The notes under the pieces were generated by a model. The model was not told where the DNA came from, did not search any database, and saw only the letters and a program-made list of their open reading frames with translations. This document shows positions 1-59,135 of a DNA stretch of 64,000 nucleotides, in pieces (the first letter of the stretch is position 1; the number at the start of each line of letters is the position of its first letter). The stretch is taken from NCBI GenBank assembly GCA_951406725.2, contig OX597821.1, positions 31,620,001 through 31,684,000 of the forward strand. The letters are read 5' to 3'. Source of the stretch: Octopus vulgaris (Eukaryota). The translations under genes and the position numbers were made by a program.

Positions 1-4
1 AATT

Positions 5-420
5 TATCTGTAAAAAAATATGGGACACTTATTCAACAGCCAATATAAATCTCAGAGTTTCAGATGCCGAGGGGGAAATCCACAACACCATCTCTTCGGG
101 TATCTGGCCATCTGAAAAACGCTATGAAAAAAGACCGTAATACGAAAGAAAATTACTGTGTTATAATTTCGCTACTTATATAAAAGCGCTAATACCATGA
201 CCGCTAATTAAAATAATGTTAAAAGTCCATAGTAAACACGTAAGCATGCCTACTCATATGCTGACATATATATATATAAGCAGCGAAATTATAACACAGT
301 AATTTTCCTTTGTGTTACAGCCTTTTTTTATAACGTTTTTCAGATGGCCAGATAACCGGCATCTGAAACTCAGAGTTTTATTTTGGCTATTGAATAATTG
401 TCACATGTTATTTTACAGAT
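5..420. mobile_element. Fold-back non-coding element abutting (TA)n, with a decayed hammerhead
   Basis: ~5-182 is an inverted copy of ~270-420. Minus strand 45-103 reads ATAC-CCGAAGA-gatg..catct-GAAA-ctctgag-AT-TTAT. The plus arm keeps GAAA-ctcagag-TT-TTAT but has an internal deletion. Confidence 0.65.
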
Positions 421-509
421 ATATATATATATATATATATATATATATATATATATATATATATATATATATATATATATATATATATATATATGTATAT
501 ATATATATA
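418..509. repeat. (TA)n microsatellite, representative of more than 25 (TA)n/(CA)n tracts
   Basis: Direct reading. Other large tracts: 1210-1282, 3466-3598, 5551-5610, 6975-7062, 7575-7651, 19070-19188, 23095-23237, 30746-30886, 42868-43058, 43417-43472, 47082-47124, 51496-51640, 58718-58761, 63874-63957. Confidence 0.98.
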
Positions 510-3500
510 GGCACTTTCTTTGTTTCTGGAGGATGAAATATAACAGTTGTGCGAAGAGATTTATTTCTTGATTTATTTTTCCTGTACTGTATTTTTGTTG
601 TAGCATGATGCGTCTAATGGCTTCCTATTTATAATTATTTCTTTCGAATTCTGTAATAGATGTTTTAATTCATTATCGAAGCTGTCACTGAATGTCAATG
701 AAATGTATAGCTTCTACTTACTTAAATCACTCACCGTTCTATGGAATGACACGTTTCAATTGTTATATCGAATCAGTACTTTATATTTGCCATGGACATT
801 TTTATATCACACTACGTAAATGGAGCCAAATTTTTGGCAACTAAATTCTAAATTAGATCTAAACAATTACAATCTTTTTTCCTACCAAAATCAATTGTTC
901 ATCAATCTTTTCATCTCCCGCAGTAAATCTTTAGTCAAACTAACAAATTTTTGTATAATGCGGGAAGCTGCAAAGGGTACGTGAGTTTTAATTTAGAAAC
1001 TTTTAGCCTTCCATAATTTATTGGCTTTGAGCGATTTTTTATACGCTTATTTCCTTATACAAAATATGGTTTCTTATATTGTCTTGATAAAAAAAATATT
1101 CCTCCATCGTCTTATCGCGAAATGAAGTATTTTGCAGCATATTGTAACAGGTCAAATGCCCATTTAGTGATAGTGATTTAAGAATCATTCTTCATTACAA
1201 TACACTATGTATATATATATATATATATATATATATATATATATATATATATATATATATATATATATATATATATATATATAAACATATAACAAAGCAT
1301 AATTCGCTAGATCTTTGAATATTGCACGTCAAAAATCTAATCTGTTCAAATTATAATCAACGTTGATATGAAATATCAGTTCCTATCAATTTGATATATA
1401 TCTTTATTTTTCAGACCGGTGCTGAGGTGGCACTTCTAATCGACCTGTAGAAACAATGATCCGTTATTGATATTTTGTATGGAATATCGCATCATCTTTA
1501 AACAGCCTCCCAATAGTATATTCAATATACAATTACTACAAGTTGCATTGCGGCTTCTTGTACGTTGGAGACTATTTGTCACCGTTAGCAAGCAGGCTTA
1601 AACCTACCGAATATATAAGATATGTATCTAAGAAATATTTCTTTTACTAACGCTACACTTTATAAAACATAATTAACAGTTACAATCATTTAGTTTGTAA
1701 ATAATTTTTGATAATATAATATTTAACAGTTCAATGGCTTACTGTAACAATTGTTCGGGTAATAGCAGCTTCTGTAATGCATTCAGGGTCTTTCTTTTAA
1801 AATCGTTCAAAGCTATTTTACTGGGCATAACTATAGTAATGTTGCTATTACTTTTATACTACAGCTTCCAATTTCGTTTTGCAAGACCATTCGATGGTGT
1901 GACCGTGAAACATACTAGTTACTATATGTCTCTGTTACTGAATAAAGTTTTCACATATGCTTGCGCGATGTTTGTCACATGAGCATAGGTGTAATAGGCA
2001 ATAAGCGGAGATGACTAGAAGAATGTATGTTATATCATAAGGGAACCATTCTGCATACCACTCCGTTTCACAGCGTATTTCTTCACAACATAATAAAATT
2101 CGCAATCTCCCATTTTCCTCTAGAGTATGTAATATTCAGTTTGTGGTATTATTTTAAAATATTAATTCGCATTTAAGAGTTTAATTTTAAGTGATTAAAG
2201 CTTTTTTCAGTTGGGTACATTAGCTAAACACAAGCTTACTAATGTTTATCAATAAAATGTGCTGCGAATATACTATGTATGTAAATGGTACGTAGTGAAA
2301 CCACACCTTACTTCAATCATCTTAAAAACCATTAATTACGTTATTTCAAGATGAAGAAGTTGATTGTAGGATCCAACATAAATATTTCAAGTAAATAAGA
2401 ATGGAAAGCTGACGTAAAATACAATTTTGTAATAACAGCACGTTTATCTGCAAGGGAATTAAACGGTGTTGTCATTCTATTCTTTTGATGTTGAAGTTCA
2501 AGAGAAAAAGACGAGATAATAAATCTCTAGTGAACAAAATTATTTGCCCAAATATATTGTTTTAAAGCTGTGTATAATTGTTTAAATTATTAGTTATAAA
2601 AAATATATAGCACCAAATTTCAAAGACAATATCACGCTATTAGTTTAGGTGAAAACGATAATAAATCATTATCAACGAATTACGTCAAGAGAAGACAAAT
2701 ACATACAAACTATAGTGCTAATACCATATTGCGTTGGTGTTCGAAAAATGAGAGTAATAAATATCGTGATATTGACGCCATTAACCACGACAAATACAAA
2801 TAAGATAATCTTGAAAAAAAACTATATAGGAGGCGAAATAATAAAACTGATTAAAGTAACAGAAATTTGGAGGAATTCTTTATTATGAATATGTGACTTA
2901 AAGGTACCTTGATATCACTGAAGCCCTTAATAATAGCGAACCTAATTAATATAATTAATATTTAATATTTTTGATATAACAACCCATGACTTTCTGTCAT
3001 AACATATGATTTGAATTTCTTTAACATATTACAGAATTCAGTATTTCATGGAAGGAAATTGGAAACTGTAGAATATTTAGGGGTTGTTGCGGCGTGTAAC
3101 AATGTTTCGTCTCTTCTTTAAGAAAATAGCCGCCATATTTGAAACAGAAATAAAGCTAATAAAACCAATGTTATCGTGTGCAGCTGGAAGCATATAAACG
3201 GTTGCTGATTAAAATTTAATTGACACGGAAATATGACCCAGCTGATCTTTATACCAGGTATAAGATGCAACTTTTAAAACGAAAACAGCCATTTAAACTT
3301 TAAGGTTCAATTAATTCATTTTCATTAGTTTACATGGGCACTACTGAAACAAATTTACTGGTGTATATCATGGGATCAAAACAATGACTTTAAGGAATGA
3401 ACCAGCAAACCTGAATCCAATGCTAAATTCAAAATATCCTTTTAAAACGTACTGTATAGAATTAAATATATATATATATATATATATATATATATATATG

Positions 3501-56590: not shown

Positions 56591-57877
56591 CCTAATGTCC
56601 TAAAATATATTAACACTATTATACAAGCAGCAGCAAAACACAATATGTGAATTGTGACGGGCAACTTCTCTATTTTCGTTTGAAAATTAATTGAAGAGGA
56701 TTAATATTTATTATTCAATTTAGAATACCATTTATCTATTTGTTCACACCTGTAAAACATAAAACAGCTATATTCATTGAAAATACATGCCGATGCTACT
56801 TTTATAAAATTCAGTATTTTAAACGAAAGCAAATGTTCACCTACTTTTGCTTATTCCATGGTAACAATAAATACATCATATAATATATTCTCACCTTTCA
56901 AACATTTAATAAATACTGTTTTTACACAACGCATTATTTAGAGACAATTTTGTATACTTTTTCAGCACTCCTCATACATAAGATTATATAGCTCGCAGAT
57001 ATTTTTGAATACTACTTACATGTTTTGTTATGTTTTTGAGTGATTTATTTATTTTTTTGCCGGTATATTCTCTTTGAAATTTCTCATCGAACAAGGATAT
57101 GCATAGAATACATTACATTGGTTGTCAAGTGAAAAAGACATGTTTCCTGAGGTACAAATGGAGACATCAGTGATTTACTATATATTCATGTGAGATATAG
57201 AAAAAAAAGTGAAAAATAAAGAATATGGAAATGAGAAATACAAGTATTAGAACAGGAAATTAAATATGTTAAAACAACTAATGAAATAAATTACTGCGAG
57301 CTATAACAAATGTATTAAATAAAATATACCATATCTACTCACCTGTCGACGTACATGCTTCTACAACAATAACGACATATATGTTTATACGTTTACAAAT
57401 CGTTATATACAGAAATGCTTCTCGTGTACTACATTCTCTTATCTTCCTCTTGATGTCTCATTTTTTAAATTATTCATCTCTCTCTCTCTCTCTCACTCTA
57501 ATTCACTCCCTTTCTCTCTCTCTCTCTGTCTAATTCTCTCTTCTTCTCTCTCTCTTTCCCTTTACGTATGTAATTATCAACCTTTTTTTCCAAATTTAGA
57601 TACGTTAGTCTATCGAAATATATTCATGCATATTTGCCGCGACACACAGATACATATATTTGTAAATATATGCACATGTGTGTGTGTCTGAGTGTGCGGT
57701 TTGGTACTTATTAGTTTATTGAAAGTCTTACGCAGAGATGGTAATTTAGCAAATCGTTATAAGTTAGTGTCGATATAGAACATTACTATTACACGAATTG
57801 TCAGGTAACTCTTGGTAACAAACCTGATGAATTTTCCAAATATACCGCTTATCTGAATAACGGTTGAGATCCAATTT

Positions 57878-58292
57878 GGATCTTTTCGGTTTGAACAGCA
57901 ATTTTTTTCTAGCGGTGTCATATGAAATTGTCACTCATAATTATGACCCTAGTATCGATCTATTGCATTTCAATAGCTTTTAGGGTTAGGGTTAGGGGTA
58001 GGGGAAGGGTATCTTTTTTCTTCATAAATGTAAATAAACCCAATCTGTTTCTTAAACGAGGAACATATTCATACGGAACAGAATGTTTTTTTTACCCCAA
58101 TAGACGTAATTGATTGGTTGAAATTGCAGAAATTGAAGAAAAAAACAACAAATATTTTACAAACTATAGAATTTTCTCAAAAAAGCTAAGAGAAAAATGT
58201 TTTATAAACACATTCTACCAGTATACGAAGTTTAACATTTTTTAATTACCTAGAAATTATGTTAAAAACTGCCGTTCAAACCGAAAAGATCC
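57878..58292. mobile_element. MITE with ~28-bp TIRs and 8-bp TSD (Merlin-like)
   Basis: GGATCTTTTCGGTTTGAAC.. / ..GTTCAAACCGAAAAGATCC. TSD TCCAATTT at 57870-57877 and 58293-58300. Superfamily inferred from GG ends plus 8-bp TSD. Confidence 0.88.
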
Positions 58293-58760
58293 TCCAATTT
58301 TTTTAGCTCTGGATTAAATCAACTCTCAACAGCGTATTTAAACCAATTTGAAATTACGATACAGTTTCTGCTTAATCGCTAGCAATTCCATAATAAGCAG
58401 ATTAATTCTAACCATTATTTATATTTATATTCTGTTTAAAATTCTAAAAGCATACAATTTTAATTTTATCGTTCATGATACAGTGAAAATGCATTTAATG
58501 GAAATGTTGTAAACAATATTGAATTAAGAGATTCGATATATTTAATCCCTCAAAATGGGTATTTGAAAATATCAGGGGGGTTTTCTGGATTTATCTCATA
58601 AAAAGGTGATCTTGAAATTATTAAAGATTTACAAGAAATTTATAAATATGTCAAGTCATAAAAGATGAGATGTTGAATTAACAGTCATAAGTATATATTG
58701 CACATACCAGTTATATGTATATATATATATATATATATATATATATATATATATATATAT

Positions 58761-59135
58761 AGGGTGAAATAGAGAAAGAGAGAGAGAGGTTGTAGTAGTA
58801 CAAGGCACCACTGTTTAGTGGAAATAGCAGTAGATAATTTAGGACGCTATAGTAAAGCATCACAGAATATATACTGGCAAAGGCGTGTGAGGGCAGCGTA
58901 CATTAAAAATAATTTTGTTTTGCATCGAGGAAGAGGATTAGATAAATGGATAACTCAGAATCGGATAATAGAGTATCTACGTTTCGACCTCTTCAAATAC
59001 GCTTGTTATCGTAAATTTGATTAGTCTACTTTCAGCTAGATTTACCTGGACAATGTTTCAAATGTTGCTACATCAATATGCCAGTATACGTGCCTGAACG
59101 ACTAGCCATTAACAGAACCGAGAACGGTGAATGTA
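58761..59135 (-). mobile_element. Old (TA)n-anchored element with a hammerhead relic
   Basis: Starts (TA)n-AGGGT and has gaaatagcag at 58821. Minus 58975-59041: CTGAAAG-ta-gac..tcaaat/atttga..gtc-GAAA-CG-TA-GAT. Confidence 0.5.

Follow-up and report, generated by a model that had tools for sequence, protein, structure and literature searches.

The stretch of DNA analysed here (the window) comprises 64,000 nucleotides (nt) of the Octopus vulgaris genome, positions 31,620,001 to 31,684,000 of contig OX597821.1 in assembly GCA_951406725.2. It is high in AT, has microsatellites throughout, and holds more than a dozen short inserts that carry a type I hammerhead ribozyme or its remains. These inserts raise the question whether they form, as a preliminary description of the window proposed, a radiation of non-autonomous, retrozyme-like elements mobilised by Penelope enzymes. 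We found that the radiation is real and large, and that it is made of two known kinds of element, retrozymes and truncated Penelope elements. Our reading is therefore one of a mixture, in which closed hammerhead units stand beside truncated tails of coding Penelope elements, and in which the closed units are probably circularised RNAs that were copied by a Penelope enzyme with reverse transcriptase (RT) and GIY-YIG domains.

In a genome search with each interval, all 13 inserts listed in that description proved to be copies of ten high-copy dispersed families of the host genome (2.80 Gb, 227 contigs). Families were lettered by window interval as A (47125), B (3599), C (5), D (5862), E (6449), F (18068, 23807 and 31925), G (20170), H (24894 and 30884), I (26097) and J (58761), and first-look genome candidates numbered 919, 1860, 1973, 3121, 1511, 1844, 1001, 1017, 1615 and 1155 for A to J, respectively. 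Per family, 40 of these candidates were scored, and the consensus was built from the best 25-30 loci (nine for G). We also drew a blind sample of 75 stretches of 10 kb (750 kb) from 23 contigs, placing them at round coordinates. When 29 ribozyme-centred segments were used as a library to search the window and the blind sample, 14 insertions were identified in the former and at least 78 in the latter, spread over 45 of the 75 stretches. All 13 inserts on the earlier list were therefore real family copies, while a fourteenth (about 51193-51421) had been overlooked and two boundaries changed: G really spans 20095-20319, and C extends past the left window edge. The proposed density of about one insert per 5 kb holds for the window (14 in 64 kb) but not for the blind sample, where it was at least about one per 10 kb, half that of the window. 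Extrapolated to the whole genome, the blind-sample counts correspond to some 3x10^5 insertions, and the number of ribozymes that look intact would be near 1.4x10^5. Family F and its relative K made up 30 of the 78 blind-sample insertions, and K by itself 13. Family K (L038, L058, L071, L080 and other loci) is a sister of F with a core that is either canonical or U4C.

All ten consensuses folded as a type I hammerhead in which helix III is a palindrome or close to one. As proposed, the 13 listed inserts carry such a ribozyme (intact-looking in five) or a relic of it (in eight), and helix III had been described correctly as far as the consensuses go, but its letters required correction for I (CCGTTCGG, with the palindrome CCGATCGG in 2 of 36 copies) and for J (CCTAGG, next to a 7-base-pair (bp) stem I and A-C at positions 10.1-11.1). 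A strict type I descriptor, with canonical core boxes as given in PMC8557442 (available to us in part, like the other papers cited below), gave four matches in the window, all of them in family A. We then applied a relaxed descriptor that accepted variant cores as well as a long stem II, which could be flanked on either side by an unpaired base; it was relaxed after the window families were known, and the same descriptor was applied to shuffled sequence. This gave 12 matches in the window (four each in A and B, one each in E, H and I, and one spurious match at the inversion junction of family B) versus 0 in each of 20 shuffles. The expected hammerhead excess was also present in the 750 kb of blind sample, with 37 matches versus 0-4 (mean 1.2) in ten shuffles. 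In an Rfam scan of the window, 150 of 197 matches were listed and included no hammerhead family; the top ones were microsatellite artefacts.

Covariation between families, likewise predicted, was found as well. Over eight pairs of related families, 53 of 71 helix pairs were unchanged, 15 had changed on both sides, three were G-U and none was broken (15 of the 18 changed pairs compensated on both sides), with the caveat that five of the eight family pairs had members chosen by pairing and that the script demanded the first stem II pairs. Because of this selection the cleanest set is that of J/J2 and D/I, which were found by homology alone and in which 7 of 7 changes were compensatory. As read from these consensuses, the compensatory changes show selection on the predicted ribozyme fold. 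Core boxes were intact in most distinct copies of A (21/22), B (21/22), D (34/44), E (26/26), I (34/36) and J (18/28), and among these six families only A has a fully canonical core. A mismatch at 10.1-11.1 characterizes B (U-U), D and H (A-A), and E and J (A-C), and was present in 12 of the 37 blind matches; C, I and four further blind matches have an extra base before G12 only. Family F has a U at position 6 and a position 7 that varies among subfamilies, and its core was canonical in 2 of 76 copies. Within families, the core letters showed no trustworthy margin of better conservation over their flanks. PMC3088659 records a stem II that naturally starts with U-U, U3-A8, and a low activity of A6C; A-A or A-C at 10.1-11.1 and A6U were not met in the available part of that paper.

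Families A, B, D, E, I and J share a closed organization. Their tandem units measure 476-477 (A), 557-558 (B), about 460 (D), 546 (E), 440 (I) and about 430 bp (J), and D and I are sister families. The units are self-closing, with the same junction recurring at many loci, and every unit type includes one type I hammerhead motif. No RT or GIY-YIG match was present within the units, and the longest frames in family B span 104-114 amino acids (aa). At 165 loci of these six families, no sense-continuing frame of three test Penelope proteins was found, and the Penelope matches near such loci were located behind TA tracts, inverted, or distant. Penelope frames seen beside copies of B (L035), H (L214), D (L261), I (L178) and A (L011) were rejected as separate insertions behind TA tracts. 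Together, these features fit non-LTR retrozymes (LTR, long terminal repeat) with predicted self-cleavage, whose closed tandem units span about 150-1000 bp, a range that includes all six unit lengths. For family A no RNA run was on record; contigs of three presumed RNA runs contain parts of it at low depth, and strand, ends and circles are unreadable there. A search for fixed A-to-I (adenosine-to-inosine) editing gave no sign of it, as sense A>G changes were not more frequent than T>C in A (29 vs 32), B (61 vs 116), E (21 vs 31) or I (23 vs 66). Separately, a contig of run X9, which has another organism label, shows seven clustered A>G differences at window positions 48655-48705, to be ascribed to editing or to a species difference.

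The view that all inserts are non-coding could not be maintained for C and F, which continue upstream into coding frames. Family C runs into a frame ending in CxxC..E..N..CxH, and a Hydra frame was located upstream in 7 of 25 C loci; a peptide search with the C-linked frame returned 4948 genome candidates. At L398 a 717-aa open frame is followed by the C ribozyme and then by (TA)n. This frame has RWK, DKT, a CxCx5C linker and CxxC..E..N..CxH, has no GxKF/Y and no CCHH, and its protein has 928 homologues of similar length. Judged by these motifs, C is the predicted 3' end of a Hydra-clade Penelope-like element. Family F has a GIY-YIG frame upstream at L007, L389 and L261 (with a Pfam GIY-YIG match on L007) and is, again by motifs and with the GIY-YIG part recovered without RT, the putative 3' end of a Neptune-like Penelope element. 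Inserts of C and F would therefore be ordinary 5'-truncated autonomous copies. The retrozyme-like reading accordingly stands for six of the ten families and falls for C and F (4 of 13 inserts), while G and the two H inserts (3 of 13) may belong to either class. The 5' end of G is open over at least 0.9 kb of low-complexity sequence like the 3' untranslated regions (UTRs) of C and F, with no coding frame found upstream in nine loci, and H copies end about 25 nt upstream of the core.

The general connection to Penelope was upheld, as the genome contains open RT-GIY-YIG frames of two clades. Next to the Hydra clade, Neptune-like elements are represented by a young family in which 781-aa RT-GIY-YIG open frames are numerous (a GIY-YIG search gave 6136 candidates), exemplified by L272 with Pfam RVT_1 and GIY-YIG matches, the C-terminal GIY-YIG being accompanied by a cysteine linker. 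Its ribozyme has a U3-A8 core and is located about 80 nt from (TA)n; none of the window inserts belongs to this family. At L271-L278, an open frame of as many as 479 codons lies upstream of the 781-aa frame and overlaps it, which suggests a frameshift or an intron; the 3' UTR measures roughly 1 kb and has repeats inside it, and the U3-A8 ribozyme has a weak stem I.

Polarity was determined on 255 loci minus 33 repeats of one insertion or duplicates, leaving 222 insertions; these loci were best matches to window copies, a choice that favours copies reaching the 3' end. In 189 of the 222, (TA)n was no more than about 12 bp away from the 3' end in hammerhead sense, against a background of 6%, and the 119 single-arm copies had (TA)n at 3' in 96 and at 5' in 45 cases. 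The blind ribozymes showed the same direction, with (TA)n at most 150 nt downstream in 17 of 37 and upstream in 6 of 37 (background 13%), and 12 of 14 blind F copies ended on TA. An inverted arm was found on the 5' side in 102 of the 222 insertions, including 28 of family H, where the query itself is a fold-back; an antisense right arm occurred once in 222, with L363 as one further tail-to-tail neighbour. Both polarity statements of the preliminary description (3' end at the microsatellite, inversion at the 5' side) are thus borne out. Its statement that inserts lie in or beside microsatellites is generally correct, the exception being 18068-18230, which none adjoins. We also noted that elements of different families are often nested in TA tracts of earlier ones (6435-6449; L007, L150, L322).

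In two-armed insertions the arms are head-to-head and terminate on the outside at fixed positions of the unit, a long site and a short site, both of them at a TA. Among insertions in which both arms were mapped, a long end was paired with a short one in 12 of 15 of A, 6 of 8 of B and 15 of 18 of E (33 of 41), two ends alike were never seen, and the remainder had one end off-site; the mapping query for E ended at the long site, and those for A and B included neither site. The two sites are separated by 122 (A), 114 (B), 95 (E), about 83 (D), 76-89 (I), 75 (G), 68 (C) and 66 nt (H). Most insertions have 1-3 units, but the longest arms, in one B insertion, comprise eight units and at least five opposite, and arrays of at least 14 units occur. 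Divergence within insertions was below that between insertions in A (1.1-1.6% vs 1.9%), B (0.9% vs 1.5%) and E (0.6-0.8% vs 1.1%), and non-consensus letters were common to the units or arms of one insertion at 22-30%, versus 6-10% between insertions. Partial tandems, a 5' inverted copy, a one-end tail and a microsatellite target are all present, as in the Penelope-like elements of PMC8557442. By eye, a CCCT-containing pyrimidine motif is visible 8-15 nt before the long site in the unrelated families B, D, E, G and I, and is a possible recognition signal.

Priming would take place 100-330 nt downstream of where cleavage is predicted, and the template should accordingly run through the ribozyme; combined with arms that cross the ribozyme repeatedly, this indicates that it would be a circle or a multimer. 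We propose that a tandem or read-through transcript would be cut by ribozymes that act as dimers via the palindromic helix III, and that the monomer RNA would be ligated into a circle. An endonuclease would then nick both (TA)n strands, and each DNA 3' end would prime on the RNA, one at the long site and the other at the short site. The RT would circle the RNA template for a variable length, after which the two complementary DNAs would be joined at their 5'-truncated ends; in single-armed copies one arm only would be kept. The copying enzyme would be a Penelope RT-GIY-YIG protein, most likely of the Hydra clade. That Penelope enzymes mobilise the closed units we consider very probable, and the Hydra clade as main partner somewhat better than an even guess.

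What points to Hydra as a mobiliser, at the level of sequence, are two J-Hydra fusions. The first (L361 and L413) is TA-flanked and has Hydra 3' ends on both sides of 1.6 J2 units, with no TA at the joints and a 5-base microhomology. In the second (L338) a J arm is joined head-to-head to a 3' end that comes from a further Hydra-type family, again with no TA at the joint. In addition, Hydra copies with open frames (L399, L401, L411) have the same head-to-head long and short ends, 68 nt apart.

Several observations weigh against the copying of circles by a Hydra-clade enzyme. The closed-unit consensuses, compared with 50 GIY-YIG loci and 19 Hydra or other loci, had no BLAST similarity to Penelope 3' ends, which leaves descent from pseudo-LTRs unsupported. 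The J-Hydra fusions are only two among 222 insertions and may have arisen when an element inserted into an older copy and part of the sequence was deleted; at L299 an E arm directly adjoins an old Neptune-like frame, and retrozyme tails measure 76-122 nt versus 68 nt for Hydra. The unpaired base before G12 was ruled out as a Hydra marker, since the Neptune-like loci L281 and L288 have it (by eye). As to the circles, these and the cleavage are deduced from DNA sequence, the variant cores may be slow or dead, units of one insertion are non-identical, and copying of a multimeric array transcript would lead to the same shared letters. Monomer folding energies were better than those of shuffles in none of nine window motifs (z -1.4 to +1.4); such unremarkable energies are expected for dimer-type ribozymes (PMC4209133), which in itself lends no support.

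With these points in mind, it is possible, though we regard it as the more doubtful option, that it is mainly Neptune-like elements or several Penelope clades, and not Hydra, that move the retrozymes. The young Neptune-like family with its many 781-aa frames likewise ends on (TA)n, one E joint involves a Neptune-like frame, and tail lengths differ among families. Nevertheless, the tail of this young family is 33 nt long and its copies are mostly direct tandems (4 of 5 have a direct copy upstream), and Hydra-type sequence is present in both J fusions.

A different template for the same enzymes and target is rather unlikely, namely that a long linear tandem-array transcript and not a circle is copied, with the ribozyme as a passenger or RNA trimmer. 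Arrays of at least 14 units could be transcribed entire, units of one insertion differ by 0.6-1.6%, many cores are off canonical, and only one of nine frog retrozymes cleaved in vitro (bioRxiv 10.64898/2026.07.22.740005). On the other hand, insertions mostly have 1-3 units and yet arms of eight exist, the compensatory changes argue for selection on the fold, and circles were shown for retrozymes of coral, mussel and axolotl (PMC7229834).

We consider it improbable that all ten families are 3' ends of autonomous Penelope elements, with units duplicated locally and lacking an independent life. This does apply to C (the Hydra frames in 7 of 25 loci) and F (L007, L389, L261), which with K accounts for the 30 blind insertions mentioned above, and the open, low-complexity 5' extension of G resembles the C and F 3' UTRs; the closed units are set apart by their one recurring junction across many loci and by the 165 loci that gave no sense-continuing test-protein frame. 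Finally, a spread of satellite-like units at the DNA level, by recombination, rolling-circle DNA or fold-back transposition into microsatellites as merely tolerant sites, is most improbable: tandem arrays and fold-backs are possible without RNA and family A lacks an RNA run on record, but the 3' ends are strand-specific and fixed, 5' truncation is random, arms are head-to-head and almost never tail-to-tail, and the anatomy matches that of coding Penelope copies.

The mixture of circle-derived retrozymes and truncated Penelope tails can be extended to a bolder reading that we hold only tentatively, in which about 10^5 hammerheads belong to dozens of unrelated circular-RNA parasites that would hijack a still active Hydra-clade enzyme and would have unprecedented working cores, and in which every insertion would be a record of twin priming at two fixed points on one RNA circle. 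Such cores would be those that have A6U, those in which positions 10.1-11.1 are A-A or A-C, and those with an additional base ahead of G12, possibly acting as slow or partner-dependent dimers.

The closed families resemble the metazoan non-LTR retrozymes of PMC7229834 and bioRxiv 10.64898/2026.07.22.740005, which are AT-rich non-coding tandems of a few hundred bp with one type I hammerhead per unit, range from monomers to multimers and are found together with Penelope-like elements. They differ in being (TA)n-dispersed with head-to-head twin arms and two fixed sites, and in their minimal dimer-type ribozymes with a long stem II, frequent core variants and many unrelated families. Penelope-like elements were proposed as retrozyme mobilisers in PMC7229834, and such mobilisation was supported in bioRxiv 10.64898/2026.07.22.740005, which traces vertebrate retrozymes to Penelope pseudo-LTRs; since retrozymes as Penelope parasites are already in print, the concept itself is not new. 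Chlamys elements such as MRC1 (PMC8557442) are likewise non-autonomous Penelope derivatives, with pseudo-LTRs and head-to-tail multicopy insertions, but their 3' ends resemble the autonomous partner and they are mostly without hammerheads, whereas the units described here have ribozymes and no partner match.

Of the coding parents, C agrees with the Hydra clade of PMC8557442 in its protein motifs, a ribozyme near the 3' end and (TA)n insertion; it differs in its 68-nt tail, compared with 30-40 nt in the Penelope-like elements of that paper, and in its main subfamily, where the core is U4C and G12 is preceded by an additional base. The 781-aa protein, with RT, C-terminal GIY-YIG, GxKF, DKG and CX2-5CxxC, is of the Neptune/Nematis type (PMC8557442; PMC4209133), and its U3-A8 core variant is as in schistosome elements. 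Family F has the extra base after A9 that is typical of Neptune/Nematis-type elements but differs from them in that 74 of 76 copies have a U at position 6 and fail the canonical core, and in that position 7 is free among subfamilies.

The available parts of PMC7229834 and bioRxiv 10.64898/2026.07.22.740005 make no mention of octopus or cephalopods, and a literature search that included few subscription journals found no paper on cephalopod retrozymes. A repeat annotation of Octopus vulgaris (PMC13282606) lists 31 recently active Penelope-like families and 893 unclassified SINE (short interspersed element) families, with ribozymes unmentioned in the part available. The present analysis adds the two-class split, a Hydra parent for C together with two J fusions, the two-site rule that holds across families, and the core variants. 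So far, co-occurrence and pseudo-LTR similarity have been the grounds for inferring which enzyme moves animal retrozymes, and the Penelope transposition cycle, with its tandems, inversions and one-sided tails, is described as undefined in PMC8557442. Young two-site retrozymes with multi-unit arms, Hydra fusions and open frames together offer a test system for circle templates, twin priming and partner choice, and the natural core variants are ready material for ribozyme biochemistry. For annotation, about one such insert per 10 kb of genome is likely labelled SINE, MITE (miniature inverted-repeat transposable element) or unknown. The window copies are compiled in Table 1.

Table 1. Hammerhead-bearing inserts and relics in the window; core positions are those of the window.
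Positions	Strand	Family	Description
5..419		C	Two head-to-head relic arms, predicted Hydra-clade 3' end; no arm with a whole ribozyme
3595..4069	-	B	Inverted arm, ends at short site; hammerhead core 3835
4068..5553	+	B	Forward arm, 2.7 tandem units, long-site end before (TA)n; cores 4107, 4663, 5220; U-U at 10.1-11.1, helix III CGTACG
5862..6435	+	D	1.25 tandem units; relic, core 6223, stem I broken in window copy
6449..6975	-	E	One 546-bp unit minus 13 bp; intact-looking ribozyme, core 6784; A-C at 10.1-11.1, helix III CCGAGG; TA tract 6435-6449 common with D
18068..18230	-	F	Relic, putative Neptune-like Penelope 3' end; adjoining microsatellite gone
20095..20319		G	Two short head-to-head arms; only ribozyme 3' half; long end 20095, short end 20319, then (TA)n
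23807..23974	-	F	A6U core, 3' end on (TA)n
24894..25087		H	Fold-back of short-site inverted and long-site forward arm; core 24968 on +
26097..26551		I	440-bp tandem unit; main arm on - (26097-26400), intact-looking core 26365; inverted arm on +
30884..31112		H	Older subfamily, relic, U4C core 30977
31925..32095	+	F	Relic, A6U core 31968
47125..48460	-	A	Long-site arm, 2.8 tandem units; canonical cores 47428, 47904, 48379
48458..49069	+	A	Short-site arm, 1.3 units; canonical core 48883
51193..51421	+	J2	Subfamily fragment, ribozyme 3' half, helix III CCGG, ends on (TC)n(TA)n
58761..59135	-	J	Relic of tandem unit of about 430 bp

Other repeats and coding relics were also noted in the window. A relic of a Penelope-type GIY-YIG C-terminus at 7901-8167 (- strand) has 36% identity to the young Neptune-like protein, and a 395-codon open stretch with a Pfam RVT_1 match at 45956-47143 (- strand), a LINE-type (long interspersed element) fragment, adjoins the TA tract that holds family A. 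A MITE-like element at 21206-21655 has 172-bp inverted repeats flanking a (CA)n core, with look-alikes by eye in L285, L287 and L314. SINE-like dispersed repeats of about 190-230 bp are present in both orientations beside CA/TA runs (13656, 26637, 28537, 41503, 50924), and a repeat of about 140 bp occurs in at least three diverged copies at 55705-56600 and is present in L181, L185 and L193 too.

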